Source of the DNA: an uncultured Gammaproteobacteria bacterium
GTDB taxonomy: Bacteria > Patescibacteriota > Patescibacteriia > UBA9934
Direction of reading: 5' to 3'
NCBI GenBank assembly: GCA_964452565.1
Contig: CAYVLY010000002.1
Span: forward strand, 119,166-183,165
Length of the DNA stretch: 64,000 nt
Shown: piece by piece, positions 38,916 to 61,856 of the stretch
How the letters are laid out: each line of letters opens with the position of its first letter
Numbering within the stretch: position 1 is the first letter of the stretch
The notes under the pieces: model-generated
The model's database searches: none
What the model was told of the DNA's origin: nothing
The model's input: the letters and a program-made list of their open reading frames with translations, nothing else
Translations under genes and position numbers: made by a program

Positions 38916-38957
38916 CCCATCGACCACGCGCGGTCACACCCACACACTCCAGCTCTC

Positions 38958-39562: not shown

Positions 39563-39610
39563 CCTAGTGTAGAAATACGCGCACCTGGCTACAACACCAC
39601 CCTGGCTCTT

Positions 39611-39631
39611 GGCTGGGGTGTTCTGCTTCTC
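39611..39631 (+). repeat. Direct repeat GGCTGGGGTGTTCTGCTTCTC, copy 2, abutting the -35 of the rplS promoter
   Basis: Exact 21-mer match to 38958..38978. Confidence 0.8.
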
Positions 39632-40276: not shown

Positions 40277-40278
40277 CA

Positions 40279-40323
40279 ACAGAACCCAGCCGAAGGCCCT
40301 GAGCCTATCGAAGGGAACACAGA
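40279..40323. repeat. 45-bp repeat ACAGAACCCAGCCGAAGGCCCTGAGCCT(A/G)TCGAAGGGAACACAGA, intergenic copy
   Basis: 44 of 45 identical to 57479..57523. Flanked by cagaaca-type short repeats. Confidence 0.85.
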
Positions 40324-40330
40324 TCAAAGG

Positions 40331-40352
40331 ACCGCCGCAAGGCGGTTCTTTT
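40331..40352 (+). terminator. Rho-independent terminator after rplS
   Basis: ACCGCC-gcaa-GGCGGT stem-loop followed by TCTTTT. Confidence 0.65.
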
Positions 40353-40437
40353 ATATTGACAGAAAGACATAAAACTGGTAGTCTCCAAAGTCGAAAGACT
40401 TGAGTGTGGGCATCCCGCCCGCCTCTTGGAGGGAAAC

Positions 40438-40908
40438 ATGAACAGAAAACTCGCGATGCTGGCCATCGCCTCCACCTTCCTGGCCTCCTGCGCCTTGAGC
40501 AAAGGTACCGGCCTCACCGATTGCCACGATGCACACGGCTTTGTCAGTGACACGGTCTGGATCTCAGGATCTGTCAGGCGGCCGATCAAGGTCGCCAAGA
40601 CGATCGAACAGCATGCTCACCAATTCGATCACTGCAAGAACTTCTCTGATGTGCGTGGGACCACCAGCGAACAACGTCCGGGTGTCAGGCTCATCATACG
40701 CGAAGTACCCCAAGAAATCACCGTAGAGGTGATGGTGCAGTCCAACGGCACCCCCATCGAAGGTGGTGGGCGCACGGAATACGAATCGCCCATGGAAACT
40801 TGCTATCGGGAAACCATGGAGATGATTGGCTTTCCTGCCTGCACAGGCCCGAACTACTACACGGTCATGTGGTTCCCGGATCGTGACCAGAAAACCCCCG
40901 CCCCATAG
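40438..40908 (+). CDS. Putative lipoprotein
   Basis: MNRKLAMLAIASTFLASC signal peptide with lipobox. Higher-GC gene. Confidence 0.55.
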   Translation: MNRKLAMLAIASTFLASCALSKGTGLTDCHDAHGFVSDTVWISGSVRRPIKVAKTIEQHAHQFDHCKNFSDVRGTTSEQRPGVRLIIREVPQEITVEVMVQSNGTPIEGGGRTEYESPMETCYRETMEMIGFPACTGPNYYTVMWFPDRDQKTPAP

Positions 40909-40937
40909 GCAGCAGACCGACGCGCTGTCTCGTTCGT

Positions 40938-40969
40938 CCGCCCCACCCCGGGGCGGTTTCTGATTTTTT
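40938..40969 (+). terminator. Rho-independent terminator (plus strand) between convergent genes
   Basis: CCGCCCC-acc-CCGGGGCGG then TTTCTGATTTTTT. Confidence 0.6.
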
Positions 40970-40975
40970 AAAAAC

Positions 40976-40999
40976 CCCCTGGCCACGCCAGGGATTTTT
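40976..40999 (-). terminator. Rho-independent terminator for the minus-strand gene 41021..41824
   Basis: CCCTGGC-cac-GCCAGGG with a T-run when read on the minus strand. Confidence 0.55.
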
Positions 41000-41020
41000 G
41001 TTAAATATGTCTAAATTTTT

Positions 41021-41824
41021 TTACGCTGCCAACTTTATAACTTGACTATCTACCCCTTTCTCATCACCCTCAGCACTTCGTGCACCGCCCTCATCTAATA
41101 TCTGACGCTCACCAACGATGTACAATTCATCTGAAGCATTTGGTGTCCAATGTATTGCCATTTCATGCATAGGAAGTGCGTGATCCTCACCTACATGCAC
41201 ACCCTGCTCTTCGAGAGCGCCTCTCATATCATCAACTTTGCGCTGTATACTTTCTTCACTCCAACCATATTCATATTTCTGACTCTTGACCCCCATGGTC
41301 CTTAATAGTGTCAGTTCCACAGATTCAAAATCAACATCAGCATCTTTCATAGCATCTGCAATCTTACCAGCCGAATATTCCCTGGTATCATGACCCCAAT
41401 GTCTATCATCATCTTCTTCCTTATAATTACCCCACCCGAGCCTAGAGCGTGGTGTTAAATGGACCATGATGACACGATCCTCGCCCTCCGAAGACTTACC
41501 AATACCAAATGCAACCATACATCCAGAAACTCTATTTGTTAGCAATTCATGCCCCTCTGATAAAATGACACCTGAATCAGTGGGCACAATTCCCGCCTTG
41601 CCATCTGGAACCTCGGCCATAGCAATATCCCCCATGCGGACATGGATCTTTTGACTGACCCTATCTTCCCCATCAACAATATTCGATAAATCTGCGGTCT
41701 GACGATTTTCAAATTTTTGTGTATAAAGATCTAATATCATCTTTCGTGTTAATACTGCTCCGGATGGCTCTCTTTGTTCACTATGAGCCTCCTGGCTAAT
41801 ATGATCTCTTTTTAGTTCATTCAT
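41021..41824 (-). CDS. Hypothetical protein (267 aa)
   Basis: Long low-GC ORF with host-like codon usage. No motif recognised. Confidence 0.55.
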   Translation of the reverse strand: MNELKRDHISQEAHSEQREPSGAVLTRKMILDLYTQKFENRQTADLSNIVDGEDRVSQKIHVRMGDIAMAEVPDGKAGIVPTDSGVILSEGHELLTNRVSGCMVAFGIGKSSEGEDRVIMVHLTPRSRLGWGNYKEEDDDRHWGHDTREYSAGKIADAMKDADVDFESVELTLLRTMGVKSQKYEYGWSEESIQRKVDDMRGALEEQGVHVGEDHALPMHEMAIHWTPNASDELYIVGERQILDEGGARSAEGDEKGVDSQVIKLAA

Positions 41825-41942
41825 ATAAAGACATATTATATTAAAACTCCCCTTTTGGGGAGTCTTATAGATCCTTCGACTCGGCCAGACAAGCTGACCT
41901 CGCTCAGGATGACGGCTTCTGGAATACAGCTATCCGCTACCG

Positions 41943-44876
41943 TCATTTCTTTTTTGACTTTGCTGTGCCCTTTTTCTTCATTGCCTCTTTAAGATACTTT
42001 CCAGTGAACGTTTTTGCTTTTGCGATTTCCTTAGGTGTTCCTTCGCCAATTATCTTTCCGCCTTTGATTCCACCTTCTGGTCCCATGTCGATAAGCCAAT
42101 CAGATGATTTCATTACATCTGTGTTGTGTTCGATAACTAATACAGTATTACCTTTATCAACCAATGCATGTAGCACGCCAAGTAGACGCTCAATGTCATC
42201 AAAGTGAAGTCCTGTTGTTGGCTCATCAAGAATGTATAGGGTCTTTCCGGTTGCACGTCGAGACAACTCAGTTGAAAGCTTCACGCGCTGCGCCTCACCT
42301 CCAGACAAGGTCGTGGCGGGTTGTCCAAGTGTTAAATACCCAAGTCCAACCTCATGTAACACATTGAGCTTTTCGTAGATGTTTGATCGATCCGCAAAGA
42401 AACGTCGCGCTTCATCAACTGTCATGTTCAAAACATCAGCAATGTTCTTCTGACGATAGTGAATATCAAGCACCTCTTGAACATATCGATTTCCCTTACA
42501 CTCAGGACACGGCGCATATACATCTGGCATGAATTGCATCTCGATTCTAATCTGTCCATCTCCAGAACAGGCCTCGCAACGACCTCCGCCCTTTACATTA
42601 AAGCTAAACTTTCCAGCATCATATCCACGCAACTTCGCCTCTGATACTTCTGTAAACAAATCTCGAATTGCAGTGAACACGCCGGTATATGTAGCAGGGT
42701 TTGAACGAGGAGTTCGTCCAATCGGAGACTGATCAACTGTCACCACCTTGTCAATACTCTTTATTCCTTTAATCTCCTTATGCTCTCCTGGATAAGCTTT
42801 TGCACGGTAAAAGTGCTTTGAAAGTGCCTTTCCGAGGATATCGAGGATCAACGTTGACTTACCTGAGCCTGATACTCCAGTAACACAGACTAGCTTTCCA
42901 AGAGGAACCTCAGCTGTGACATTCTCAAGGTTGTGCTGGTTGGCGCCAACGATTGTAATCTTCTTATTGTTCCCTTTTCGATATTGTTTTGGGGTCTTAA
43001 GCGTCTTTCGCCCCATCAGATAATCACCAGTTAAAGAATCCTTATCTTTCATCATTTGTGCCGGAGTTCCTTCAGCAACAATCTGACCACCATAGGCTCC
43101 TGCTCCTGGTCCAACATCAAATACATAGTCAGCGGCCTTAATCATGTCTTCATCATGCTCAACAACAATCACAGAGTTTCCAAGATCACGAAGATGTTTA
43201 ATAGTTTCGATTAGATGCTCATTGTCACGCGGATGAAGCCCAATAGATGGTTCATCAAGAACATAGATCACTCCTGAAAGCGCTGCTCCAAGCTGAGTCG
43301 CTAGACGGACACGTTGAGACTCACCGCCTGAAAGCGTCATAGCACATCGATCAAGGGTAAGGTATCCGAGCCCAACATCGATTAAATGCTGAACACGCTC
43401 ACGAACTTCTTTTGCAACTCGCTCAACGACTAGTGCGTAAGCATCTGAAAGGTCACTATCTCCATTGAGCTTCTCAGCCTCAGCAAGCACATCATCAAAG
43501 AAACCTGGGACATCCTCGATCGGACGGGAAACAACATCAGCAATAGACTGATCATTGATTGTGAAAAGTAGCACCTCTTTGCGAAGACGCTGGCCACCAC
43601 AATCCGGGCATGTCATTGAACGCATGTATGTTTCAAGCTCTTTGCGAACATACTCACTAGAAGTTTCACGATACTTTTGCTCAAGCATTCCAATAACTCC
43701 CGGGAATGTAATCTTACGACCACCAACTTCATATTCAGTGCCTCCTGTTCCGTTAAGAACTATGTCAAGTTTCTTTTGCGTAAACTTCTCTAGTGGATCG
43801 TGCATGCTAAACTTTTGCTTTTTCGCAACAGTTTGAAGTACTTCCATGTACCCGCTTTGATTTCCCGCAATTCTACTCCAAGGCTTTACTGCACCCTGCG
43901 CCAAAGTCAATCGCTTGTTTGGCACAACAAGATCTGGTTCCAAAACCAATTTGACGCCAAGCCCAGTACATTCAGGACAAGCGCCAGCTGGGGAGTTAAA
44001 TGAAAATAGTCGTGGCTCAAGCTTTGGAATCTGCATTCCACTTGGTAGATGATATCCCTGAACCAATTCCTCCTCGTCACCCGTGTCGTCTCGGTACATA
44101 AGCAGACGATCGTTTCCAAGATCAAGCGCTTTTTCAAGAATTACGCGCATGCGCTCTATTGGCACATCCTCCTTTACATCAAATCTATGCGCGAGAATCT
44201 CAATTGTATGTTTTTTTGTTTTTTGTTTGCGCATTCCAATAGCCTCATCCAGATCCATCATCAAACCATCGTATCGAACCTCATCAAAACCAGCATTCTT
44301 GGCAGCAATCAAAACCTGTTGATGCTCACCCTTTTGGTCTTCAACCATTGGAATGAAAAGCATGACCTCACCACCCTTTATAGCTACTGTAACTTGTGTA
44401 GCAATATCCTCGAGCGTTCTCTGTTCGATTAACTTACCTGTCTCAGGATGATGCGGCTGTGCAACACGGGAAAATAAAACACGCAGATAGTCATAGATCT
44501 CCGTGACTGTTCCCACAGTTGAGCGTGGGTTGTGTGAAGAAGACTTTTGATCAATCGCGATTGTTGGAGAAAGTCCAGTGATCTCGTCAACGTCAGGCTT
44601 GTCCTGAAGTTCCAAGAACTGCTTTGCATAACTTGAAAGCGACTCCATGTATCTACGTTGCCCTTCGGCATAGATCGTATCAAACGCCAGGGATGATTTT
44701 CCTGAACCAGAGAGTCCGGTTATCACCACAAGCTCATTCTTTGGTATGTCGCAATTTACGTTTTTAAGGTTATGCACTCTTGCACCGCGAATAGTCAATT
44801 TGTCTTCGTTTTTCACACGCGAATTGTTATGAATGTAAGCGACGACGACAATATCATATATTTTGATAAGTGGCAA
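41943..44876 (-). CDS. uvrA: Excinuclease ABC subunit A
   Basis: Two ABC ATPase modules ([23 protein letters not shown] and [11 protein letters not shown]), zinc-finger Cys pairs, LSGGE signatures. 977 aa. Confidence 0.93.
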
Positions 44877-44909
44877 GACTGAGACTGCGTAATCAAAAAA
44901 CCGACCCTA

Positions 44910-44995
44910 TTTTCCATCCCGAGTGTTAGTCGACCTGCCTGCCGGCAGGCAGGGGGATCTCTCGACTCGTCCTTCGGACTCGCTCGAGATGGAAA
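44910..44995. repeat. Palindromic intergenic element (REP/MITE-like), copy 1
   Basis: TTTTCCATCCCGAG...CTCGAGATGGAAA with internal CCTGCCTGCCGGCAGGCAGG and a GGATCTCTCGACTCG core. Related copies at 54870 and 63943. Confidence 0.7.
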
Positions 44996-45015
44996 TATTC
45001 ATGGATCGGTTTTTT

Positions 45016-45034
45016 ATAATCACTTTTAATCACC
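45016..45034. promoter_or_regulatory. Direct-repeat motif ATAATCAC-ttt-TAATCACC (candidate regulator binding site), copy 1
   Basis: About 40-bp region roughly 85% identical to 48888..48932. Confidence 0.4.
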
Positions 45035-45049
45035 TTTTCATCCTCTTCC

Positions 45050-46600
45050 TCACCACGTCGGATTGCAATCTACATCTTCTCCATCCTCATCCCTACAATC
45101 CATCAAACCATATCCAGAGGATTCAGAGTTCGCGCAATTTACAATAAGCTCATCTCCAGCAAATCCAGCCGCAGTGGCAAGTGCTGCAACAACTGGAATC
45201 GCTGCACCACCCGTAATAACAATGCCGGGGACCCCTAAGACAGTCACTATGACAGCCGCCTCGCCATCAAGGTCCAACTGAAATACCGCACACTGCTCAC
45301 CTTCTGGCGCCAATCCGCATGGATCATTTATACAAATCTCCTCCAACCAAGGATAGTTCTCATCACCACTCTCAATATCATCGATTGGCTCATACTCTAG
45401 CTCCTGCTCTCCAACGTCCAATAACTCTGGGTCTAAGTATGTAGCAAGAACAAGGTCGTACGCTCGACAACTCTCACTATCCCCATCCTCTGCATCTTGA
45501 CGCAGCTGATCGCAGTCTAGGGAATTGCCCTCTTCTGGATATACAAGCTCTACACAAGCAGTGTATGAAACTCCCAAATCAAACAGACCGGGATCATACT
45601 CACAGTAATAGAGATCATCATCATCTGGCTCAGGATCGCTTGCAAGTAATGACTCACATGCACTGTCACTTGGAGTAACGCCTTGTGAATGCGCAAATCC
45701 ACAACGAACACATTCATAACCAGTAGCACTCTCTGTCGAGCTCATGCAAGTTTCCATTGGATCTTCTGTCTCTCCATCATCTTCATAGCACGTTGACCAT
45801 ATACATTCGGTGCCATCTGTTATCGACGTCTGAACATCTTCAAACCCCTCACGAAATCCATCAACAATACCCGTATCACCGCATGCATCAGTATCCGCGG
45901 TAATATTCAACCCCGCCTCTTCCATAACTTCACAAGTCGAACTTGGATCTAAGAAAACAATGGTTCGAATCTTTGGCGGACTCAATCGATTGAAAGTCGT
46001 GAAGCTTGGATCAACTAGGTTTGCAATCGCATAGGTTGCAAACAGAAGAATAATCCCCACCACTGCATTTTTGATTCGTGTTTTTGCCTTACCAACTTTT
46101 TCTGGCTTTCCACGTGCCAACATGTACTGTAAACCACCAAGCATGATAATTACGATTGCCAGAAGTGATCCAGCGGTTAGTACCCAACTGTATGCAGCGT
46201 TTATGTAATCCCCTAAACTGTCAGACTCAGTAAAACTTCCAATGGCAACGTTAAGGCTAACTGCCTCAGGTTCTGAATAGCAGCGACCCTCACCCGGTAA
46301 ACAGTTTGTTGCCTGTCCTTCCCACTCGCCTTCGAGTTCACCAGTCTCAGTTGATGTCTCACACTCATACTGAGTCCAACACATTGTATTGTATTGCGGC
46401 TCAAGATCACTCTGATCTTCTGTGTAACATCCAAGGTAATCATCACAGGCGTCCTGGCAGGCTGCCACATCTTCTGACTCTCCATTTTCATATGCACCCC
46501 CACTCGACTCGCACCAACAGGCACAGGTATCTGCCAAAACAAAAGATGGCAGAACACAGAACGCGGAAAGCAGAATAAATAAAACTAACAAACGTTTCAT
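45050..46600 (-). CDS. Large Cys-rich acidic secreted/membrane protein
   Basis: Signal peptide MKRLLVLFILLSAFCVLPSFVLA. Two central TM helices. Many Cys and Asp/Glu residues. Confidence 0.6.
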   Translation of the reverse strand: MKRLLVLFILLSAFCVLPSFVLADTCACWCESSGGAYENGESEDVAACQDACDDYLGCYTEDQSDLEPQYNTMCWTQYECETSTETGELEGEWEGQATNCLPGEGRCYSEPEAVSLNVAIGSFTESDSLGDYINAAYSWVLTAGSLLAIVIIMLGGLQYMLARGKPEKVGKAKTRIKNAVVGIILLFATYAIANLVDPSFTTFNRLSPPKIRTIVFLDPSSTCEVMEEAGLNITADTDACGDTGIVDGFREGFEDVQTSITDGTECIWSTCYEDDGETEDPMETCMSSTESATGYECVRCGFAHSQGVTPSDSACESLLASDPEPDDDDLYYCEYDPGLFDLGVSYTACVELVYPEEGNSLDCDQLRQDAEDGDSESCRAYDLVLATYLDPELLDVGEQELEYEPIDDIESGDENYPWLEEICINDPCGLAPEGEQCAVFQLDLDGEAAVIVTVLGVPGIVITGGAAIPVVAALATAAGFAGDELIVNCANSESSGYGLMDCRDEDGEDVDCNPTW

Positions 46601-46690
46601 ACAGCTATATTGTAGCATGAAAGAGACATGATCATATGCTATACTGTGAGCATTGACGCATAAGGCTAATCCTGCTAGGATCTTACCGTT

Positions 46691-46900
46691 ATGACATTAG
46701 ACATTATACAATTTATCCTTGCTATTTTGCTGGTTGGAGCAGTGCTTATCCAGTCAAAAAACGCAGGACTTGGATCAATCTTTGGAGGAAGTGACAATGT
46801 ACAAACAACTCGACGTGGAGTTGAGAGAAAACTGCACATTACAACAATTGTGATCGCAATTTTGTTCTTTGCTATCTCGCTTCTCAACGTCTTGTACTAG
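46691..46900 (+). CDS. secG: Preprotein translocase subunit SecG
   Basis: 69-aa two-TM protein with LGSIFGGS motif characteristic of SecG. Confidence 0.75.
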   Translation: MTLDIIQFILAILLVGAVLIQSKNAGLGSIFGGSDNVQTTRRGVERKLHITTIVIAILFFAISLLNVLY

Positions 46901-46946
46901 ATAGATCCCTCGCAAGCTTTTTATTGAAAGCCGCGAACCGACAAAC

Positions 46947-48773
46947 ATGTCAACTCACATGAAAAACCTAAAACGAACACTCAAGCGCGTGATCGCGCCA
47001 GTGAAATCTTTCTTTACAAAAAAACCTTCCAGCAAGAAGAACCTGGCAATGCAACAGGTAATGAGCGCTAAAGAGGTTAAAAAAGTTCCAAGCGGAAAGC
47101 AGCTTAAGCACTTCCCTTCATTATTATCGCAACGTGAAAGGATGATCGCTGGAGTTGCTGTTCTTATTATTATAATCTCTGGGATATTTCTTATCCGGTC
47201 AATCATCGGCACCCAACAAACAACCATCGCTGCAGTTGGAGGAGAATACACTGAAGGCCTAATTGGATCACCACAGTTGATCAATCCTCTCTACTCCCTT
47301 ACAAGTGATGTGGATACAGACCTTTCTAGACTCATATATAGTGGTTTAACAAAATTTGATACTGAGCTTGGAACGGCGCTTGACCTTGCAGAATCTTATT
47401 CGATTTCAGAAGACGGACTTGAGTACACATTTACCATTCATGAGAATGCTAAATGGCATGATGGCAATCCAGTGCTTGCAGATGACATCATCTTTACAAT
47501 AAGCGCGGTTCAAAATACGCAGTACCGTAGCCCGCTTGCAACAAGTTTTGAGGGAGTAACTGTCTCGCAGGTTGATGACCGTACAGTGCTTTTCACACTT
47601 GAAGAAACATCTGGCTCATTCATGTCACTTATGAGCGTTGGGATCCTGCCATCACACCTTTGGCAGGAGATAACACCGGCTAACGCTGTTCTGACACAAC
47701 TCAACATTAAACCCATTGGATCTGGTCCATATATGTTTGAGGTGTTGGAAAAAGACGAACGGACTGGGAATATTAAGAACTATACTTTGGAAAGATTTGC
47801 CGATTATTACGGAGATGGTCCATATATCGAATCAATAACTTTTAAATTCTACCCAGACCTCATATCAGCATTAAACGCACTGCAAAATCATAATGTTGAG
47901 GGTGTGAGTTATGTCCCAGTATCCGAAGCTCTGGCACTTGAGGACGAAGACCGCACTACTATAATGACAGCTGGGATGAATGAATATGTATCTGCGTTCT
48001 TCAACCAGGACTCATCAAATGCGCTCGCTGATGAAGAAGTTAGGAAGGCACTTGTCTTTGGTGTGTATTATGAAGAAATTATTGATGAAGTGTTCTCTGG
48101 GTATGCCCGATCAACTAGCAGCTTTATTCTTCCTGAGACATTAGGGTATTCAGAAGACATTGTCGATGTCGGGTTTGATCAAAAATACGCAACTACAATC
48201 CTAAACGAGGCAGGTTGGGAGATTGATGGTGATACAGGCCTAAGAATGAAGGGCGATGAAACCTTGTCGCTCACAATAACAACGCTTGAATCTCAGGAAT
48301 TGCTTGATGTGGCAGAACTTTTAAAAACTCGTTGGGAAGAGTTAAATATCGAAGTTGAGATTGAGGCGGTTGATGTTACTACATTCAAAAATGAGACTAT
48401 TGTGGATCGCGATTATGAAATCCTGCTATCAGGAGAGGTTTATAGTGCAAACTTGGATCCATATGTTTTCTGGCACTCATCACAGGTTGATTATCCAGGC
48501 CTTAACTTAGCCGGATATGAGGACGCTGATGCTGACACTCATATAGAGACTGCTCGCGAAACAACTGATATTGCGAAACGAGAATCAAACCTTATCAGTT
48601 TACAGGAAATCATTCTTGCAGATTATCCTGCTGTATTCTTGTACCAGCCACTCTACACATACGCGATCTCAAGCTCGATCAGAGGGGCCGAGTATGAGCG
48701 TATTTCCGTACCAGCTGATAGATTCAATAACATCAACGAATGGCACATAAAATCATCTAAAAGCTTTGAATAG
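46947..48773 (+). CDS. ABC transporter substrate-binding protein, family 5 (oligopeptide-binding-like)
   Basis: N-terminal TM/signal anchor. Length and overall SBP_bac_5-like layout. Confidence 0.75.
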   Translation: MSTHMKNLKRTLKRVIAPVKSFFTKKPSSKKNLAMQQVMSAKEVKKVPSGKQLKHFPSLLSQRERMIAGVAVLIIIISGIFLIRSIIGTQQTTIAAVGGEYTEGLIGSPQLINPLYSLTSDVDTDLSRLIYSGLTKFDTELGTALDLAESYSISEDGLEYTFTIHENAKWHDGNPVLADDIIFTISAVQNTQYRSPLATSFEGVTVSQVDDRTVLFTLEETSGSFMSLMSVGILPSHLWQEITPANAVLTQLNIKPIGSGPYMFEVLEKDERTGNIKNYTLERFADYYGDGPYIESITFKFYPDLISALNALQNHNVEGVSYVPVSEALALEDEDRTTIMTAGMNEYVSAFFNQDSSNALADEEVRKALVFGVYYEEIIDEVFSGYARSTSSFILPETLGYSEDIVDVGFDQKYATTILNEAGWEIDGDTGLRMKGDETLSLTITTLESQELLDVAELLKTRWEELNIEVEIEAVDVTTFKNETIVDRDYEILLSGEVYSANLDPYVFWHSSQVDYPGLNLAGYEDADADTHIETARETTDIAKRESNLISLQEIILADYPAVFLYQPLYTYAISSSIRGAEYERISVPADRFNNINEWHIKSSKSFE

Positions 48774-48796
48774 CCCCAGAGGTTGCCCCTGAGGGG

Positions 48797-48825
48797 TTGA
48801 CAGTATTAATCATACGTGCTATTAT
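48797..48825 (+). promoter_or_regulatory. Near-consensus sigma-70 promoter TTGACA-17-TATTAT
   Basis: TTGACA at 48797..48802, a 17-nt spacer, TATTAT at 48820..48825. About 240 bp upstream of rnj, suggesting a long structured 5' UTR or a small RNA. Confidence 0.45.
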
Positions 48826-48887
48826 ACTTATCTTAATACCCACGTGTGCCCCTTGAAAAAAGTGATGAAAGGCAGAAAAAGTGATCA

Positions 48888-48920
48888 AAGGTGATTTTTT
48901 AATAATCACTTCTAATCACC
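48888..48920. promoter_or_regulatory. TAATCAC motif cluster (one inverted AAGGTGATT plus ATAATCAC-ttc-TAATCACC), copy 2
   Basis: Matches 45016..45034. Lies in the rnj leader region. Confidence 0.4.
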
Positions 48921-49068
48921 TCTTCAACCTTTTTGACCCTCCTTCTGCTATGTGACTAGTCGTCTCTTTTTCGTATTTCAAAAAAGTCGAGTATTCATAT
49001 ACGTGGATCGGTATAAATCCGATCGGCATCGCAAGATGCAGCTTATTCATTCGTTAACAATTTAAACT

Positions 49069-50931: not shown

Positions 50932-50942
50932 ATTTAACAAAA

Positions 50943-50973
50943 CCCGCGCAGAAAGTGCGGGTTTTGTGTTTTC
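50943..50973 (+). terminator. Rho-independent terminator after rnj
   Basis: CCCGCGC-agaaa-GTGCGGG followed by TTTTGTGTTTTC. Confidence 0.65.
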
Positions 50974-50982
50974 TGGTATAAT
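50974..50982 (+). promoter_or_regulatory. Extended -10 promoter element TGgTATAAT for trpS
   Basis: TGGTATAAT lies 27 nt upstream of the trpS ATG. The same terminator-plus-TGGTATAAT arrangement recurs at 53429. Confidence 0.5.
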
Positions 50983-51008
50983 CTAAAGGCTAAAATCAAA
51001 TCAGACAT

Positions 51009-51989
51009 ATGCGAGTCCTAACTGGAATACAACCTACAAATATTCTTCATATCGGAAACCTATTTGGTGCTTTAATCCCTGCTGTTGAGCTTCAGAAAGA
51101 TCATGAGCTCTACATGATGATTGCTGACTATCATTCTATAACTGTACCGCAAAATCCTGAGATGCTGAGTGAGAGCATCCTTCTTAACGCTGCAGCCTAT
51201 ATTGCTGCTGGTATCGATCCAACCAAGACTGTACTTTTTCAGCAGTCTCAGATTCCTGCACATACTGAGCTTGCATGGATCCTTGCAAGCCAAACCCACA
51301 TGGGTGAGATGAAAAGGATGACTCAGTTTAAAGACAAGTCTGGTGATAAAGCTGATAAAGTTTCTGTTGGGCTATTTACCTATCCTGTTTTAATGGCTGC
51401 GGATATTCTGCTGTATGACACAGAGGCAGTACCTGTTGGACATGATCAAAAGCAGCATGTTGAGCTGACCCGCGACGTTGGTCAGAGGTTTAACAATGCT
51501 TATGGCGAAACGTTTGTAATTCCAAAACCAATGATTCGCAAACATGGAGCGCGACTTAAGTCTTTGACAGAGCCTGAGAAAAAGATGAGTAAGAGTGCAC
51601 CGAGTGCGAAGAGCTATATTTCATTGATGGACGACCGCGAAATTGTTCACAAGAAAATACGATCTGCCGTGACAGACTCAGGGCAATTGATTACATTTGA
51701 GGAACGGCGTGAAGGACTTTATAACCTGCTTACGATATTTAGTTTGTGCACTGGAAAGTCCGGTGAAGATCTGGCACATGAGTATGCAGAAAAAGGCATG
51801 AAGGTCCTTAAGGACGATCTTGCTGAAGCGCTTTCGAACTATCTAGATCCGATGCAGAGCAAGATGAAGGAACTACTTGAAAACAAAGATGAACTCAAAC
51901 GCATCATCGCGAACGGATCTACAGCCGCTGATAAGGTGGCGAACGCGAAGTTGGCGGAAGTGAAAAAGAAGGTGGGGGTAACGTTATAG
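51009..51989 (+). CDS. trpS: Tryptophanyl-tRNA synthetase
   Basis: HIGH-type motif (ILHIGNLFGA), KMSKS present, 326 aa class I layout. Confidence 0.9.
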   Translation: MRVLTGIQPTNILHIGNLFGALIPAVELQKDHELYMMIADYHSITVPQNPEMLSESILLNAAAYIAAGIDPTKTVLFQQSQIPAHTELAWILASQTHMGEMKRMTQFKDKSGDKADKVSVGLFTYPVLMAADILLYDTEAVPVGHDQKQHVELTRDVGQRFNNAYGETFVIPKPMIRKHGARLKSLTEPEKKMSKSAPSAKSYISLMDDREIVHKKIRSAVTDSGQLITFEERREGLYNLLTIFSLCTGKSGEDLAHEYAEKGMKVLKDDLAEALSNYLDPMQSKMKELLENKDELKRIIANGSTAADKVANAKLAEVKKKVGVTL

Positions 51990-52025
51990 CAGAAAGCAGA
52001 ACACAGAACTCAGAACGCAGATCAA

Positions 52026-52049
52026 GAACCGCCAAACGGCGGTTCTCTT
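52026..52049 (+). terminator. Rho-independent terminator after trpS
   Basis: GAACCGCC-aaac-GGCGGTTC followed by TCTT. Confidence 0.5.
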
Positions 52050-52433
52050 AAATACACGCCTAAGTCCCAAGCCAATTTTCTAGTCTCGACCTCAGGCCTG
52101 CCACGAGCACGTTCATGCTTATCCCCGGGCAGAAAGATGGAATAGCATTTTGATGTCCAGTTTCTCCTTAGATAAAAATTGGATCTCCAAAATGCCCGTC
52201 TGTATGCCTGGGGTATGCATGGACAGCGCAGTGAGGCCAAGCAGTTTCTTTTCCCCATTTCTTTGCTGCTTCAAAGAAATGGGGCCAGGGGTTAGGGGCA
52301 GGATGCCCCATCAATGGGGTTGACTTTCTTGGCCAATCCTGCTATATTCTCTCCGTCAAGTGCATCCTGCGCCTCTGACGCTGAGACAGCCCTCCTAAGC
52401 TGAAACTGAAAAACACATGGAGTGAAACCACAC

Positions 52434-52862
52434 ATGTCCGCAGTCCTCCTCGTCTCCCCGCCCAGCTCGAGTCCCACCCCCGGCAGTCCCCTGCCCGACA
52501 CGAGCGCCACACCCCCGTCCGAACAGCCCGTCATCTCAGATGAGCACCGTCGAGTCCTCCAGCATCTGGTCGCCATCGAGTTCGAGATCCCGAACCTGGT
52601 CGACCGCGAAACCATCGCTACCCTCGAGAACGCCGGACAGGTCTGCGACGCTGTAGCCTCCGCGCTCGCCGAGCACTGCGAAGTGACTCACGACGAGCTC
52701 GGGAGCACCTTCCAGACCATCGCCCGGATGAGCATGCTCAACGTGAACATCATGATCCGCATGGCCAAGGCTACCACCTGGCGCGAGTTCTGCAGCGCGA
52801 TCCCGCAGTGCTACCGCCAGGCCTGCGGCAACGCAGTGGTCGCCGGCGCCAGGATCACCTAG
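52434..52862 (+). CDS. Hypothetical high-GC protein (about 143 aa) with a Pro/Ser-rich N-terminus
   Basis: Roughly 62% GC patch (52280..52920) inside low-GC host DNA. RBS GGAGTG before ATG 52434. Directly upstream of the RNase P RNA gene. Confidence 0.4.
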   Translation: MSAVLLVSPPSSSPTPGSPLPDTSATPPSEQPVISDEHRRVLQHLVAIEFEIPNLVDRETIATLENAGQVCDAVASALAEHCEVTHDELGSTFQTIARMSMLNVNIMIRMAKATTWREFCSAIPQCYRQACGNAVVAGARIT

Positions 52863-52968
52863 TCCCGTTCTGACTACGCCCACTTGGGTAACGGTCAGCC
52901 CCGTCCCTCCGGACACCTGTTCCGGGGGGCCTTTGTTTCTATTGACATATTCGGCTAATAATGGTATT

Positions 52969-53395
52969 ATTCTGTCGTTCAGGAAATACGATAGTCGCTT
53001 GACGCTTTGCGTCATGAGGAAAGTCCGAACACCCCCTGCACGGTAACGTGCATGGACAAAGGATGTTGCTAACAGCAACCAAGGGATCAGAACGGGAGGA
53101 ACTGGAATATTGTTCCTGCCAGTCTGATTAACCTTAGGGAAAGTGCCACAGAGACAATACTAGCTCTTCGGAGTTAAAGGTGAAAAGTAGTGCGGTGTCT
53201 GAGGTCAGATGACCTCGATAGGCTACGCACTTCGCTCCATGGTGACATGGAAGCGTGGTAAACCCATCCTGGTGCAAGAGCAAATTTGGTCGCTCGCATG
53301 AAGTGATTGGCAACAATCACTCTAGATAAATGACTATCATCTTATGTCGCCCTACGGGCTATATCAGATACAGAATTCGGCTTACCATTTCCTGA
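52969..53395 (+). ncRNA. rnpB: RNase P RNA (bacterial type A-like)
   Basis: P4 strand AGGAAAGTCCG. GTGAAAAGTAGTGCGGT and GGTAAACCC...GCAAGAGCAAATTTGG conserved blocks. P1 pairing TCAGGAAAT/ATTTCCTGA defines the ends. Confidence 0.6.
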
Positions 53396-53406
53396 GCAAC
53401 AAAGAT

Positions 53407-53429
53407 CACCGCAATGAGCGGTGTTTTTT
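53407..53429 (+). terminator. Rho-independent terminator after rnpB
   Basis: CACCGC-aatga-GCGGTG followed by TTTTTT. Confidence 0.6.
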
Positions 53430-53437
53430 GGTATAAT
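53429..53437 (+). promoter_or_regulatory. Extended -10 element TGgTATAAT for the sugar transferase gene
   Basis: Same TGGTATAAT as at 50974, about 10 nt before ATG 53447. Confidence 0.45.
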
Positions 53438-53446
53438 CAAAACACT

Positions 53447-54847
53447 ATGAAACGAGTCAACCTCTTCTTTGCCGCACTTCTAGTTCCTTTGGACTATATC
53501 GTTGTTGTTGGAGCTGCCTGCTTTGCTTATTGGATGCGATTTACCCCATTTGTCCGGGAGATTCGGCCAGTAGTTTTTGACCTGCCTTTTGATGCCTACT
53601 TCAAGGTCACTGTAATATCAGGCTTTGTCTTCTTGATAATCTTTGCGCTATCAGGTCTATATGTTATCCGACAAATGCGTCTTGCCACTGAGTTTGTACG
53701 TATCATACTTGCAGTATCAGCTAGTATCGCAGTGGTGCTCGGAATTGCATTTTTCTCCCGTGAGTTGTTTGACTCACGTTTTATTGTTTTGGCGGTTTGG
53801 GGATTTTCACTCATATTCGTCTCGATTGAGAGATACCTTATCAGAATGCTTCAAAGGTCGTTGCGCCATTTTGGCATTGGACTGCAACGCGTGGTGATTA
53901 TTGGAAAAACAAAATCTGGGCAATCACTTAAAAAATACTTTCAACGATATCCAAAAATTGGTTTTGAAGTTGTTGAACACATCACGCATTTCACAGAAAG
54001 CTCAAGAGACAAAATCTTGTCACTTAAGAAAAAAGGGATGGTTGACGCACTAATGCTTGCTAATCCTGAGGCCGACAAGAAAGAGATACGATCAATTAAA
54101 GCATTTTCTGACGTTGAACATCTCAACTTCTACTACTCAGCAGAAATCTTCCCAAGTGGCGCAGTAAAGCCAGTCATACACACACTTGCCGGACAGCCAA
54201 TCATTGAAGTTCCGAAGACTCCGCTAGATGGGTGGGGCGCGATTTGGAAACGTGGATTTGATATTGTCATGTCTTTGTTCTTCATAATACTCACATCACC
54301 GATTCAGATCCTGGCAGCGCTAGCACTATTTATCGAACAGCCCGGTAATGTGTTCTTTGTACATAAACGTGTCGGACAAGGGGGCAAGGCTTACAATCAT
54401 CTTAAGTTCAGATCAATGATAAAAGACGCACATAAGTATCGCTTCGACCCAGAGTTCATTAAAAAGTATGGAAATGAACGCGGCGGGACTCCCCTTTTCA
54501 AACTTACACACGATCCCCGTATCACCCGTGTTGGTCGTATCATACGAAAACTTTCTATTGATGAACTTCCTGAATTATTTATGGTACTGATCGGTCGCAT
54601 GAGCTTGATTGGCCCTCGACCACACATGCCTGAAGAAGTTGAAAAATACAAACCACACCAAAAACAAGTACTCACAATCAAGCCTGGGATGACTGGCATG
54701 GCCCAAGTCGGTGGCCGCGCAGAGCTCGACTTTGATGAAGAAGTTCAACTGGACATGCACTACATCCAAAACTGGAGCCCATGGCTCGACTTGATAATCC
54801 TTTTCAAAACACCAATAGTAGTTATCTTCGGCAAAGGCGCATATTAA
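53447..54847 (+). CDS. Polyprenyl-phosphate sugar phosphotransferase (WbaP/CpsE-like bacterial sugar transferase)
   Basis: N-terminal TM helices. C-terminal KRGFDIVMS...YNHLKFRSM...DELPELFMVLIGRMSLIGPRP bacterial sugar-transferase signature. Upstream ATG 53414 lies inside the terminator stem. Confidence 0.85.
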   Translation: MKRVNLFFAALLVPLDYIVVVGAACFAYWMRFTPFVREIRPVVFDLPFDAYFKVTVISGFVFLIIFALSGLYVIRQMRLATEFVRIILAVSASIAVVLGIAFFSRELFDSRFIVLAVWGFSLIFVSIERYLIRMLQRSLRHFGIGLQRVVIIGKTKSGQSLKKYFQRYPKIGFEVVEHITHFTESSRDKILSLKKKGMVDALMLANPEADKKEIRSIKAFSDVEHLNFYYSAEIFPSGAVKPVIHTLAGQPIIEVPKTPLDGWGAIWKRGFDIVMSLFFIILTSPIQILAALALFIEQPGNVFFVHKRVGQGGKAYNHLKFRSMIKDAHKYRFDPEFIKKYGNERGGTPLFKLTHDPRITRVGRIIRKLSIDELPELFMVLIGRMSLIGPRPHMPEEVEKYKPHQKQVLTIKPGMTGMAQVGGRAELDFDEEVQLDMHYIQNWSPWLDLIILFKTPIVVIFGKGAY

Positions 54848-54869
54848 AAAACAGACCCCTGCCCATTGT

Positions 54870-54951
54870 CCATCCTGAGAGAGCCGTCAGGCGAGTCGAA
54901 GGATCTCTTGAAACTTGATTCTTGAGATCCCTCGGCTGACGCTCGGGATGG
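54870..54951. repeat. Palindromic intergenic element (REP/MITE-like), copy 2
   Basis: CCATCCTGAGAGAGCCGTCAGGCGAGTCGAAGGATCTC...GAGATCCCTCGGCTGACGCTCGGGATGG. Near-perfect inverted arms. Shares the CCATCC..GAG and GGATCTC core with copy 1. Confidence 0.7.
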
Positions 54952-54977
54952 AATAGGGTGTAGGTCTGTTTTTTGTT

Positions 54978-55583
54978 TTATACCTTATCCATCGTAATCG
55001 TCTCAACCACTACTTTCTTCACTGCCTGACCAATCTTCTCATGCCCCTTCTCGTTCGGATGAAGACCATCCTCTGAAAGATCCTCCATCGAGAGCAACTC
55101 TGAGTTATCGATTACCCGCACTCCCAACTCATCTCCGACTTCCTTCATGATCCCCGCATAACGCAAAACGTCGTCATTGTCATAAGTAAGCTCAGTGCGC
55201 CATGGAACCGGCTGCAGCTTAGAATCATCAATCTGTGTTGGCGTTACCAGAAGAACATGTTCAACCAGTTTGCAAGACTGGTCAATTAGTTCGTGCAGAT
55301 TCTTTTTAAAATCCTCAGGAGCAACCTGATACTCGCCGTTAGCCTTTCCTGAGTCATTCACACCAACAGCAATGATAATAGATCGAGCTGATCGCACTTC
55401 TGCCTCAAGCGAAAGGCGCTTAACCATACCATCGGTCGTGTCTCCGGACACGCCACAGTTGTAAACAAATACGTGATAGTCCTTTTCAAGATCCAATCGC
55501 AGCCGATTAACCCAACCGCCCAACTCATGATCCCAAGCTCCCCACCCAATACTTGTTCCGAAAACGCAAATCTTCTGTGTCAT
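54978..55583 (-). CDS. SGNH/GDSL-family hydrolase
   Basis: N-terminal ICVFGTSIGWG block. C-terminal DGLHPNEKGH (DxxH catalytic block). Confidence 0.65.
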   Translation of the reverse strand: MTQKICVFGTSIGWGAWDHELGGWVNRLRLDLEKDYHVFVYNCGVSGDTTDGMVKRLSLEAEVRSARSIIIAVGVNDSGKANGEYQVAPEDFKKNLHELIDQSCKLVEHVLLVTPTQIDDSKLQPVPWRTELTYDNDDVLRYAGIMKEVGDELGVRVIDNSELLSMEDLSEDGLHPNEKGHEKIGQAVKKVVVETITMDKV

Positions 55584-55670
55584 ATACATGAATCTTATCA
55601 AATTGGCCGCTACCAAACAAACAAAATTGCCCTTGCTCAAAGCCCTCTAGCGTGCTTAAATACATCTACT

Positions 55671-56786
55671 ATGAACGTAGCCTTGGTACACGATCACTTG
55701 ACCCAAAATGGCGGTGCAGAACGCGTACTTGAGGCTATGCAAAATATTTGGCCAAAGGCACCCACATTCACTCTTCTGTACGACAAATCCATCATGGATT
55801 CTGTTTTTGGCCATCGCGATATTCGTACAAGCTTTTTACAAAACATACCTGGCTCTCTTAAACGCTCTCGATGGCTCTTACCGTTAATGCCAACCGCAAC
55901 TGAAAGCTACAACCTATCAGAATTCGAAGTGATCGTATCAAGTACCAGCGCTTTTTCAAAAGGAATAATCCCATCAAACGATGCGATTCATATTTGCTAC
56001 TGCCACACACCAACTCGATATCTCTGGTCTGATACACACAGTTACATTGAGGAGCTTAAGGTTCCGGGAGCCATCAAAAGAATCCTCCCTCCAATCTTGA
56101 GCAATCTAAGAGCCTGGGATCGACTGGCAGCAGACAGAGTTGATCACTTTATCGCAAACTCAGAGACAGTTCGAAGGCGAATCAGGAAATACTATCGACG
56201 TGAGAGTGATGTAATCCACCCACCCGTTGAGGTTGATCAATTTAGCGTTACTGATGATCCAAAGGAATACTACTTGATCGGTGGTCGGCTCGTTCCATAC
56301 AAACGATACGATCTTGTTATCGACGCATTCACAAAGCTTGGGATCCCTCTCAAGGTTTTTGGATCTGGTCCGATTGAAAAAGACTTGCGGGCTCGCGCGG
56401 GTGATAACATACAATTCTTGGGCAGAGTTTCAAACGAGGAACGCGCGCGACTTTTCCAAAATGCAATCGCATTTTTGCACCCACAGGAAGAAGACTTTGG
56501 GATTACTCCAGTTGAATCCATGGCTGCAGGTCGTCCAGTCATTGCCTATCGTAAAGGTGGAGCAACTGAGACCGTAATTGATAGAAAGACCGGAATATTT
56601 TTCGACAAGCAGCACTGGGAAGAGATCGCAAACACTGTTCTACACTTTGATCACACGCGATTTGATCCAATGGAGATACGAGAACATGCTAAGCAGTTCT
56701 CAACACAGATTTATCACAAAAAAATGCACGACTATGTGCAGAATAAGTGGGGAGAGCACAGGAAAAAAATATTAGGAATCGTCTAA
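55671..56786 (+). CDS. Family 4 glycosyltransferase
   Basis: EEDFGITPVESMAAGRPVIAYRKGGATETV (E-x7-E type GT4 motif). Start at ATG 55671 (MNVALVHDHL). Confidence 0.85.
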   Translation: MNVALVHDHLTQNGGAERVLEAMQNIWPKAPTFTLLYDKSIMDSVFGHRDIRTSFLQNIPGSLKRSRWLLPLMPTATESYNLSEFEVIVSSTSAFSKGIIPSNDAIHICYCHTPTRYLWSDTHSYIEELKVPGAIKRILPPILSNLRAWDRLAADRVDHFIANSETVRRRIRKYYRRESDVIHPPVEVDQFSVTDDPKEYYLIGGRLVPYKRYDLVIDAFTKLGIPLKVFGSGPIEKDLRARAGDNIQFLGRVSNEERARLFQNAIAFLHPQEEDFGITPVESMAAGRPVIAYRKGGATETVIDRKTGIFFDKQHWEEIANTVLHFDHTRFDPMEIREHAKQFSTQIYHKKMHDYVQNKWGEHRKKILGIV

Positions 56787-56787
56787 T

Positions 56788-57966
56788 ATGCATTTGGCGA
56801 TCGACATAAGGCATTTAGCAGCTGATCAACACTCAGGCATAGGACGTTACACGATCGAAATAATAAAGCGCATGACAAAGATGGCGCCAGATGATTATTT
56901 TACACTTTTTGCAGCAGGATCTTCAGAAACACTTGCGAAACTCCCAAAATTCTCTGGAAGAAATATAGAACTTATCAAAGAAGAAACGCCAAATAGAGCA
57001 CTTTCCGCAAAGCTTCACTTCACAGCCCACACACTTGAAGACTTCTTACCAAAGCAACCTGATCTTTGGTTTTTCCCAAACATCAATATCATCAAAACAC
57101 ACAGGCCATACGTGATAACAATGCATGACCTTTCTTTTGAGCTCTTCCCTAGATTCTTCAGGATAAAAGATCGCATCTGGCACAGGGCTGCAGCACCTCA
57201 ATCACTAGCAGAACACGCGGAGCTAATCTTTGCGGTTTCGGAAAATACAAAGCATAACCTTAGTGCCCTCTGGGGCATTGGTGAGGATAGCATTGTATCT
57301 ACCCCGCTTGGAGTTGACGATCGTTTTGAAACCAAGGAGCAACCATGCGACAAGAATTATCTGCAATCGCACAGTATTGATTATCCGTATATTTTAAGCC
57401 TTTGCACGCTTGAACCGCGCAAGAACATTGAAACCATTGTAGAAGCATACGAAATTTGGCGGGAACAGAACACAGAACACAGAACCCAGCCGAAGGCCCT
57501 GAGCCTGTCGAAGGGAACACAGAACACAGAACCCCACTTAGTTATTGCTGGAGGTCGCGGGTGGAAGAATGATTACCTTCACAAACGTATTCGATCCTCA
57601 AGGTACTCATCAGACATTCATGTTCTGGGGTATATTAAGGAAAATCACAAACCAACACTATATAGACACGCAGAGCTATTCTTGTTCCCATCGTTTTTTG
57701 AAGGATTTGGTCTGCCAATTGTTGAAGCTATGGCAAGTGGGACCCAGGTGATTACAAGTTTTACTGGATCTATGCAGGAGGTCGGCAAAGAGCATGTGAT
57801 CTTCGTGGATCCATACAACGTACACGACCTGGTGCATGCTATCGATGTTGGTTTAAAAACAGATCACAACCTTGGACCACATATCCCATCTATTTTCTCC
57901 TGGAACGCTGCCGCAATGCGTACACTGATGTCGATCAAGGCATTGGAAAAAGAGGCTGTAGAGTAA
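56788..57966 (+). CDS. Family 4 glycosyltransferase carrying an in-frame 45-bp repeat insertion
   Basis: FEGFGLPIVEAMASGTQVITS GT4 motif. Residues EQNTEHRTQPKALSLSKGTQNTEP are encoded by the repeat at 57479..57523. Confidence 0.85.
   Translation: MHLAIDIRHLAADQHSGIGRYTIEIIKRMTKMAPDDYFTLFAAGSSETLAKLPKFSGRNIELIKEETPNRALSAKLHFTAHTLEDFLPKQPDLWFFPNINIIKTHRPYVITMHDLSFELFPRFFRIKDRIWHRAAAPQSLAEHAELIFAVSENTKHNLSALWGIGEDSIVSTPLGVDDRFETKEQPCDKNYLQSHSIDYPYILSLCTLEPRKNIETIVEAYEIWREQNTEHRTQPKALSLSKGTQNTEPHLVIAGGRGWKNDYLHKRIRSSRYSSDIHVLGYIKENHKPTLYRHAELFLFPSFFEGFGLPIVEAMASGTQVITSFTGSMQEVGKEHVIFVDPYNVHDLVHAIDVGLKTDHNLGPHIPSIFSWNAAAMRTLMSIKALEKEAVE
57479..57523. repeat. 45-bp repeat (copy of 40279..40323) embedded in-frame in the glycosyltransferase coding sequence
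   Basis: 44 of 45 identical. Flanked on both sides by GGGAACA(GAACA)CAGAACACAGAACCC short tandem repeats. Confidence 0.85.
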
Positions 57967-61839: not shown

Positions 61840-61856
61840 GCAAAAACCCCCTCCAT

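Follow-up and report, generated by a model that had tools for sequence, protein, structure and literature searches.

We have investigated a short repeated sequence in a stretch of 64,000 nucleotides (the window) comprising positions 119,166 to 183,165 of the forward strand of contig CAYVLY010000002.1 (GenBank assembly GCA_964452565.1), which originates from an uncultured bacterium placed by GTDB in the lineage UBA9934 of the Patescibacteriota. One copy of the repeat is located between rplS, the gene of the ribosomal protein L19, and its terminator, the other in frame within a gene coding for a GT4-family glycosyltransferase, and in both cases a core of 26 nucleotides is embedded in a microsatellite of CAGAACA-type heptamers. 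The closest GT4 and L19 proteins are found in metagenome-assembled genomes (MAGs) of Candidatus Uhrbacteria or Patescibacteria, and synteny with three related loci (L025, L027 and L028) extends over the part of the window between 46 and 64 kb. The features of the two sites, and of a comparable tract that does not contain the core, are the following:

40277..40325, plus strand: lineage-specific segment of about 49 nucleotides downstream of rplS, with the layout caa-CAGAACC-CAG, core, AACA-CAGATCA
40290..40315, plus strand: core copy A, intergenic, 13 nucleotides past the rplS stop codon, identical to the consensus at 25 of 26 positions (A at 40307)
40326..40354, plus strand: intrinsic terminator of rplS, aaaggaccgcc-gcaa-ggcggttcttt followed by a T run (hairpin at about 40326-40351; z = -5.0), conserved in relatives
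51989..52023, plus strand: uninterrupted tract of 4.7 copies of CAGAACN between the stop codon of a W/Y-tRNA synthetase gene and its terminator, representing the core-free state
56788..57966, plus strand: GT4-family glycosyltransferase gene, an intact open reading frame (ORF) of 392 amino acids that hosts tract and core
57463..57489, plus strand: left half of a (CAGAACA)n microsatellite, encoding EQNTEHRTQ (Tandem Repeats Finder period 7, 3.6 copies), with 27 corresponding nucleotides in L025
57490..57515, plus strand: core copy B, CCGAAGGCCCTGAGCCTGTCGAAGGG, within the GT4 ORF and translated as PKALSLSKG, identical to the consensus at 26 of 26 positions
57516..57534, plus strand: right half of the same microsatellite, encoding (G)TQNTEP (Tandem Repeats Finder period 7, 2.6 copies)

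A 26-nucleotide core in heptamer microsatellites

An earlier note, made from the letters of the window alone, had described the repeat as a unit of 45 base pairs, and direct reading confirms that positions 40279-40323 and 57479-57523 are identical at 44 of 45 positions, with a single mismatch between the A at 40307 and the G at 57507. A repeat search of the window extends this pair to 55 nucleotides at 93% identity. The unit that is shared with other genomes is, however, smaller and consists of the 26-nucleotide core at 40290-40315 and 57490-57515, which reads CCGAAGGCCCTGAGCCT[A/G]TCGAAGGG across both copies, whereas the additional 11 and 8 nucleotides that both copies have in common on either side belong to the heptamer tract. 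This tract is split in the same phase at both sites (CAGAACCCAG-core-AACACAGA). The core matches the window exactly twice, also if up to three mismatches are permitted, and it has no match in 100 dinucleotide-preserving shuffles of the same DNA. Its GC content of 69% compares to 44% in the surrounding region, and its ends form a direct and not an inverted repeat (CGAAGG...CGAAGG).

Both copies are found base for base in the Logan assemblies of the runs SRR8146440 and SRR8146441, copy A inside contigs of 20-28 kb and copy B together with its right flank over 2.2 kb with 0 mismatches, which excludes an artefact of a single assembler. The two Logan contigs that contain copy B start exactly at 57489, with a G followed by the core, and this break might reflect a branch of the assembly graph caused by at least one further copy in the sample. 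On the minus strand, the shared left flank and the first 12 nucleotides of the core (57480-57501 and 40280-40301) give rise to a hairpin of eight pairs that includes G·T pairs (CAGGGCCT-TCGGCT-GGGTTCTG) and that is followed by a T/G-rich heptamer tail, an arrangement that appears terminator-like in a simple scan. A comparison with Rfam 15 gave no match at the gathering score in the window and no meaningful one at E<=10 around copy B, and we know of no convincing match of the core to conserved motifs of tRNA, tmRNA or rRNA that would identify a fragment of these molecules as its universal source.

In three relatives of the rplS locus (L198, L199 and L200), the stop codon of the gene is followed within a few bases by the terminator (aaaagaaccgc...gcggttctttt), with neither tract nor core in between. 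Since the core is missing from the rplS and GT4 sites of the relatives, both copies of the window are lineage-specific. Syntenic DNA of three relatives, amounting to about 62 kb, contains no copy of the core even at seven mismatches. In L199, the loop of the rplS terminator hairpin contains a lineage-specific insert of 80 nucleotides (1850-1929), parts of which recur in L027, L028 and L198.

CAGAAC heptamer tracts are found nine times in the window, compared to an expected number of 0.48. As the earlier note had correctly recognized, they include those that precede two terminators, the first of rplS and the second of the class-I W/Y tRNA synthetase gene, and to the latter tract (51989-52023) there is a homologous one in L027. 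In L028, an unrelated insert of 93 nucleotides (5713-5805) is found at the same phase after the synthetase gene (cagaacccag/.../aataca), for which L027 provides the empty site. This insert was considered as a longer parent element of the core and rejected, since there is no other copy of it and no real similarity. The Uhrbacteria-like loci examined here are rich in heptanucleotide tandem repeats, among them TACTGCA (6.9 copies), CAGTAGG, CAGAACT, AGAATGT, TAGAATG and CTACCTT, with arrays at positions 6563-6610, 10604-10633, 17535-17566 and 19354-19384 of L028, 7208-7286 of L027 and 51989-52023 of the window. They are similar to the short tandemly repeated repetitive (STRR) sequences of cyanobacteria, and we know of no description of such a feature for Patescibacteria.

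Residence of the core in a glycosyltransferase gene

The ORF at 56788..57966 contains the domains Glycos_transf_1 and Glyco_transf_4 and carries the CAGAACA arrays, whose unit is not a multiple of three, within its coding region. Here, the sequence encoding EAYEIWR is followed by gaa-CAGAACA-CAGAACA-CAGAACC-CAG, the core, AACA-CAGAACA-CAGAACC-c and the sequence encoding PHLVIAGG. Upon removal of the 26 nucleotides, the heptamer phase runs seamlessly from the left into the right half of the microsatellite, with a lag-7 identity of the joined flanks of 0.80. In the orthologue of L025, which is 81% identical on the protein level, the same place is occupied by 45 nucleotides of uninterrupted degenerate heptamers (ggtCAGAATACAGACGGCAGAACACAG-AACACAGAAAAGGTACCT), compared to 27 and 19 nucleotides of tract and the 26-nucleotide core (72 nucleotides in total) in the window, and the core is also absent at the orthologous sites of L027 and L028. 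The sequences bracketing the repeat (GGGAACA...CAGAACCC) had been considered to resemble a target-site duplication. Since the tract measures 46 nucleotides with the core and 45 nucleotides without it, nothing has been duplicated and we have abandoned this assignment. The bracketing sequences are the halves of a (CAGAACA)n microsatellite that was already present and that the core interrupts between CAG and AACA without a duplication of the target. The net gain over the nearest orthologue amounts to 27 nucleotides or nine codons, compared to the 15 codons that were originally proposed.

In an alignment of 99 GT4 homologues, a comparison that the earlier note had suggested for a lineage-specific insertion, the peptide PKALSLSKG is found in none of the sequences. 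The observation that would have spoken against the earlier note, the same peptide in glycosyltransferases of distant taxa, was thus not made among these homologues. The segment between EAY and LVIAGG has a modal length of 21 residues among these proteins and comprises 38 residues in the protein of the window. Several distant homologues contain in the same loop peptides with a periodicity of seven residues (LQTTNYKLQTT, LSPNAYRLSP and LSTDYCLLST), for which heptamer arrays are the only possible source. Since the sequence alignment to entries of the PDB stopped short of the loop, we have turned to AlphaFold2 (with 100 sequences), which predicts the protein with a mean pLDDT (predicted local distance difference test) of 94.8. 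The only internal region with blocks below 78 concerns residues 231-250 (10-residue block means of 61 and 74), which cover most of the insert and which are located between a helix (214-233) and a strand (250-254); the block 361-370 has a value of 78 and the C-terminal residues one of 77. The low pLDDT and the length variation among homologues together place the insertion in a predicted hypervariable surface loop, which in the model is part of the C-terminal Rossmann domain. Different miniature repeats have repeatedly landed in this loop, which in L027 and L028 holds other tiny G/C-hairpin repeats (ccctcccccttcccaagggggagctggagggggt and ccccctacttttgaaggaggggttaggggtgg). The gene has survived because the tract encodes this loop and because only combinations of lengths divisible by three persist, and with nine more residues in an already hypervariable region, the consequence for the glycosyltransferase itself is probably small.

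Distribution of the core in other genomes

In a scan of 185,579 genomes, one for each GTDB species and the source genome not among them, the exact 26-mer was detected at 24 loci from the Armatimonadota, Pseudomonadota, Verrucomicrobiota (Opitutaceae, Chthoniobacteraceae and Oceanipulchritudo), Lentisphaerae, Planctomycetota (Brocadiaceae) and Patescibacteria (Curtissbacteria), with no cyanobacterial record among the 24. A scan of metagenomes added 49 contigs with GC contents between 34 and 68%, and in total the core resides in about 60 other contexts from six named phyla with host-specific flanks. These flanks are unrelated between genomes and they are extended and genome-specific among the copies of a multi-copy genome, as in gggagaag-core-ggagaa or gggcgggggctacg-core-tcccccgcc. 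Viral contigs gave no match to the exact 26-mer and thus offered no phage vehicle for this variant.

The association with heptamers extends to these genomes, where the core is in many contexts surrounded by host-specific arrays of GGGAGAA, GTGGAAA, TTGAGAG, TTTGGAG, GCCGGAG, CACTGAT, GCACGAA and other units. Upon exact excision of the 26 nucleotides, the joined flanks display period-7 continuity in 5 of 59 distinct contexts, which exceeds the 0.23% observed at random positions about 37-fold, and none of the other periods between 3 and 11 is enriched in these contexts. A stricter test on single flanks identifies period 7 in 6 of 66 contexts and in 57 of 13195 controls. Some genomes have the core nested within hairpins specific to the genome or within larger repeats, and its location in hairpin loops is a feature of particular genomes only. 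A bias of the flanks towards a purine strand is not significant overall (29 vs 29).

The core is also found, in both orientations, in long ORFs of unrelated conserved or housekeeping enzymes. A SufS of Curtissbacteria contains exactly nine extra residues (LRQAQGLRP) compared to PDB 5xt5, and a Ddl (D-alanine-D-alanine ligase) homologue contains ten. In a DusB-like gene of a Gammaproteobacteria MAG (L020, 3725-3750), PKALSLSKG aligns without gap to AKRALEESG of PDB 1vhn. Since 26 cannot be divided by three, the copies residing in frame must have survived selection on total length.

A larger family with a predicted strand-specific hairpin

The 26-mer belongs, as a variant, to a very widespread family of miniature hairpin-loop repeats that have the 17-mer CCTGAGCCTGTCGAAGG as their conserved part. 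Among the matches listed, more than 120 contigs of viral or proviral origin contain this 17-mer. The commonest form of the family reads CCGYTCRY-17mer-RY, with a complementary right arm in some copies, most of which is missing in the 26-nucleotide variant. The family is also encountered as inverted pairs (in L053, L086, L092 and a Moraxella plasmid) and as tandem units of 21-27 nucleotides, and a family core of 20-21 nucleotides is present in multiple intergenic copies in finished plasmids and chromids of cultured Sphingobium, Moraxella osloensis, Comamonas and Sphingomonas.

In 127 distinct instances of the 17-mer from viral contigs, the pair of positions flanking it (-1/+1) covaries, with 57 C-G, 36 T-A, 23 T-G and 2 C-A combinations (Fisher p = 4e-12), whereas slid controls contain 13-14 Watson-Crick pairs of 127. 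Since T-G is tolerated and C-A is not, the hairpin would be formed by the 17-mer strand as a single-stranded nucleic acid, and the pattern indicates a putative strand-specific structure with a YCC/GGR stem and a conserved loop of 13 nucleotides (TGAGCCTGTCGAA). No Rfam match over the 17-mer was obtained in 11 viral loci, and a text search of the literature for the core DNA and its six-frame peptides returned only unrelated primers and peptides.

Discussion

The properties of the repeat are reflected in its likely assignment as a 26-nucleotide non-coding insertional element of the kind of the cyanobacterial small dispersed repeats (SDR), a reading that we favor and consider reasonably probable. 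As far as the compared sequences tell, the core is an insertion when compared to orthologous sites, it interrupts heptamer tracts seamlessly and without target duplication, it combines an identical sequence with host-specific flanks across phyla, an enrichment in 7-nucleotide repeats and an in-frame residence in housekeeping genes, and it belongs to a family that appears to be under strand-specific structural constraint. The proposal of the earlier note of a tiny, putatively mobile repeat that is tolerated in frame is thereby upheld in part, as the core is absent from both sites in relatives and is read through in the surface loop of the glycosyltransferase.

Elhai and colleagues are said to have described in 2008 SDR of Nostoc punctiforme and its relatives that comprise 21-27 nucleotides, reside in heptameric STRR arrays and leave no duplication. 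The element described here resembles these repeats in its very small size of 26 nucleotides, compared to the reported range, in its near-identical dispersed copies (25/26 and 26/26 in the window, identical in the 24 and 49 loci elsewhere), in its location in tandem heptameric repeats and its nesting in other repeats, in its absence from orthologous sites of relatives and in the lack of target duplication and of an encoded function. It differs in its host, which here belongs to the Patescibacteria of the candidate phyla radiation (CPR), in the presence of the identical core in at least six phyla instead of cyanobacteria only, in its in-frame residence in protein-coding genes (GT4, SufS and Ddl) and in its membership in a family defined by a conserved loop. 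By analogy, it thus appears best described as a cross-phylum variant of the phenomenon of SDR residing in heptamer repeats, with which it agrees in every structural property that could be compared. Its carrier similarly resembles STRR, which are described as usually consisting of 7-bp units of unknown function (PMC2670836), in being a short tandem 7-nucleotide array that is often located between a stop codon and a terminator hairpin, but it is found in Patescibacteria, contains other units such as CAGAACA and also occurs within ORFs, where it encodes loops with a periodicity of seven residues.

Other known systems show a more limited resemblance. Repetitive extragenic palindromic elements (REP) and the inverted doublets derived from them (REPIN) are mobilized by REP-associated tyrosine transposases (RAYT) of the Y1 HUH type (Bertels & Rainey 2011, PMC3116915; Di Nocera et al. 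2013, PMC3733652). These share with the present family the short length (20-40 nucleotides), the ability to form hairpins, which for the present family is a prediction, the occurrence as singlets and inverted doublets, a strand-specific structure that is likewise predicted here and the lack of target duplication. In contrast to them, CCGAAGGCCCTGAGCCTGTCGAAGGG contains neither GTAG nor CGTC at either end and is not only extragenic, as evident from its copies in GT4 and in SufS-, Ddl- and DusB-like ORFs; conservation concerns the loop and not the stem, the same sequence is found across phyla instead of being lineage-specific, and no RAYT gene is linked to the element, with no Y1 transposase among the 27 ORFs of the window that were scanned. 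Rickettsia palindromic elements, reportedly described by Ogata and colleagues in 2000 as selfish repeats residing in frame in genes at surface positions tolerated by the fold, resemble our element in its in-frame tolerance in proteins only, as they measure 100-150 bp and are confined to Rickettsia, compared to 26 nucleotides and a distribution across phyla. Miniature inverted-repeat transposable elements (MITEs) are similarly non-autonomous, multi-copy and polymorphic in their presence, but the element described here lacks terminal inverted repeats as well as a target-site duplication, and typical MITEs exceed it in size several-fold.

If the repeat is such an insertional element, its core would be copied in trans as a single strand, either as single-stranded DNA or via RNA, into DNA prone to adopting a single-stranded state, for example slipped microsatellites. 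This could proceed on two routes, the first involving a hairpin-recognizing enzyme of the HUH/Y1, IS200/IS605-RAYT kind, enzymes that do not leave a duplication either, the second a template switch of a polymerase at slipped microsatellite DNA, with which the CGAAGG direct repeats at the ends of the core and the excess of GAAG in its vicinity would be weakly compatible. Our confidence in any particular mobilizing enzyme is much lower than in the assignment as insertional element. Within a genome, the element would probably multiply together with its carrier, here the heptamer tract, or by homology between carriers, which would account for the 11 and 8 nucleotides of flank common to the copies of the window, and between phyla it would travel on transferred DNA. 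On a distinctly more tentative level, we regard it as possible, though rather doubtful, that the 26-mer and the 17-nucleotide family core constitute a pan-bacterial class of mobile DNA, about the smallest known, which would cross phyla, integrate without target duplication, prefer 7-nucleotide microsatellites, enter essential genes such as SufS, Ddl and GT4 and be moved either by an enzyme acting in trans on single strands or by template switching during replication.

Several observations weigh against an insertional element. The analysis of this genome extends over 64 kb, in which no transposition event, donor or enzyme was seen; the 27 ORFs scanned against Pfam contain no Y1/HUH transposase or reverse transcriptase, and the only transposase-related match is a weak Mutator-family fragment at 31736-33142. 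By itself, the core folds at -7.5 kcal/mol, which is equivalent to shuffled sequences (z = -0.2), its preference for hairpin loops is not significant (stems of at least five pairs in 4 of 60 contexts compared to 4.1% of controls) and the excess of GAAG microhomology adjoining it is a modest and weak signal (10-15% vs 2.9%). With the 24 loci described above, the exact 26-mer is rare among species genomes, and since every cross-genome match was obtained by exact-match searching, the perfect conservation of the core is partly a consequence of ascertainment. In the DusB-like gene, the 26-mer takes the place of a native segment of partial similarity and leaves the length unchanged, which hints at a conversion-like copying that has overwritten this segment rather than an insertion. 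Finally, the flanks of 11 and 8 nucleotides shared in the window permit homology copying to explain the second copy equally well as transposition does.

These last points would be accommodated by a passive process, in which the core entered one CAGAACA tract once and was subsequently copied by gene conversion, recombination or single-strand incorporation via heptamer homology without dedicated machinery. Besides the common flanks and phase of the window copies and the constant length of the DusB case, it is favored by the extended genome-specific flanks that are also shared among the copies of other multi-copy genomes. However, such a process leaves unexplained why the same 26-mer resides in tracts of different heptamers (GTGGAAA, TTGAGAG, GCCGGAG, CACTGAT and others) across phyla, a homology of 8-11 nucleotides is very short for RecA-dependent conversion and the rplS site of the relatives offers no heptamer tract as recipient. 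We thus consider passive copying as a possible explanation of lower probability than an insertional element.

A selected functional motif, such as a binding site or a hairpin in RNA or single-stranded DNA recognized by a widespread host or plasmid factor, with a role for instance in transcript stability or, together with the heptamer tract, in bidirectional termination, would agree with the covariation of the family, whose G·U-type asymmetry is expected for a single-stranded structure under selection, with the position of copy A directly upstream of the rplS terminator and with the terminator-like minus-strand hairpin found at both copies. Since no Rfam family matches, the core resides in both orientations within ORFs of unrelated housekeeping genes, is missing from the same sites in close relatives and lacks, in its 26-nucleotide form, most of the right stem arm, we regard this explanation as unlikely. 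Slightly less likely still is a role of the heptamer tract as phase-variation (contingency) switch of a glycosyltransferase of surface polysaccharides, with the core as incidental passenger. Each 7-nucleotide unit gained or lost would shift the reading frame, peptides encoded by heptamers recur in the same loop of several distant homologues and heptamer tracts are common in related loci, but with 3.6 and 2.6 copies the tracts are both short and imperfect, L025 carries a degenerate tract at the orthologous position, the homologues in the databases include no allele with a shifted frame and the assemblies of the two runs agree exactly on the right-hand tract, with the left one located beyond the contig break. 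An artefact of assembly or contamination, such as a chimeric join or a synthetic sequence, which might be suspected from the break of Logan contigs at the repeat and the origin of most other matches from MAGs, is highly improbable in light of the presence of both copies in the assemblies of two runs and in the NCBI contig, the open GT4 ORF with its confidently predicted fold, the family core in finished replicons of cultured isolates and host-specific flanks from dozens of independent studies.

If the assignment as insertional element is correct, a non-coding sequence of 26 nucleotides has repeatedly entered unrelated genomes, including the reduced ones of the CPR, and is tolerated inside essential enzymes, which would extend the cyanobacterial SDR/STRR phenomenon to bacteria generally and point to a new insertion mechanism coupled to 7-nucleotide microsatellites. 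Among known insertional DNA elements, the core appears to be one of the smallest. Should there indeed be a pan-bacterial mobile class, the same machinery may explain the heptanucleotide tandem repeats that recur in distant phyla. For genome annotation, translations of the family such as PKALSLSKG, AEGPEPVEG, PFDRLRAFG, PSTGSGPSA and LRQAQGLR are expected in predicted ORFs and as insertions in alignments, and the cultured carriers Sphingobium, Moraxella osloensis and Comamonas open the question to experiment.

Additional features of the window

Sequences related to the heptamers are found at two further places. A direct repeat of 34 nucleotides (38945-38978 and 39598-39631; 88% identical) combines a CCAGC...GCTGG hairpin with the subsequent sequence GGTGTTCTGCTTCTC, which is the reverse complement of the CAGAACA-type heptamer, and its second copy scores as a terminator on the plus strand. 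Heptamer tracts adjoining hairpins may thus serve as tails of bidirectional terminators. At 46544-46574, a CAGAACA-like stretch is contained in a minus-strand ORF (45050..46618) coding for a protein with a T4SS_pilin domain, where it encodes part of an N-terminal hydrophobic segment resembling a signal peptide (…LLSAFCVLPS…); this stretch may either be due to chance or represent coding sequence derived from heptamers.

The first approximately 36 kb of the window (1-36137) display a GC content of 52-65%, compared to 42-50% elsewhere, and end at a tRNA-Val (36061-36137). The region contains a Replic_Relax protein, a methylase of a type I/IIG restriction-modification system together with its S subunit, a fragment of a Mutator-family transposase and numerous ORFs that match nothing in Pfam, and a Logan contig (L201) places a large serine recombinase about 2.3 kb beyond the start of the window. 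It has the appearance of a mobile element that has integrated into a CPR genome and contains no copy of the 26-nucleotide core. A perfect palindrome of 22 bp is found in four to five copies, all within this island, and could be a REP-like repeat or a binding site of the island:

881-903, 28414-28436, 30076-30098 and 35915-35937: copies of the palindrome GGTGTTTCAGGCCTGAAACACC
7603-7625: weaker copy of the same palindrome

A second family of tiny G/C hairpins (ccccctcc-ttacgaa-ggagggg-at-gggggagg and relatives) is located at 61848-61930, downstream of a DUF4012 gene. Its members also occupy the GT4 loop of L027 (10676-10710) and L028 (10640-10672), where they encode the peptides LPLPKGELEGV and PPTFEGGVRGG.

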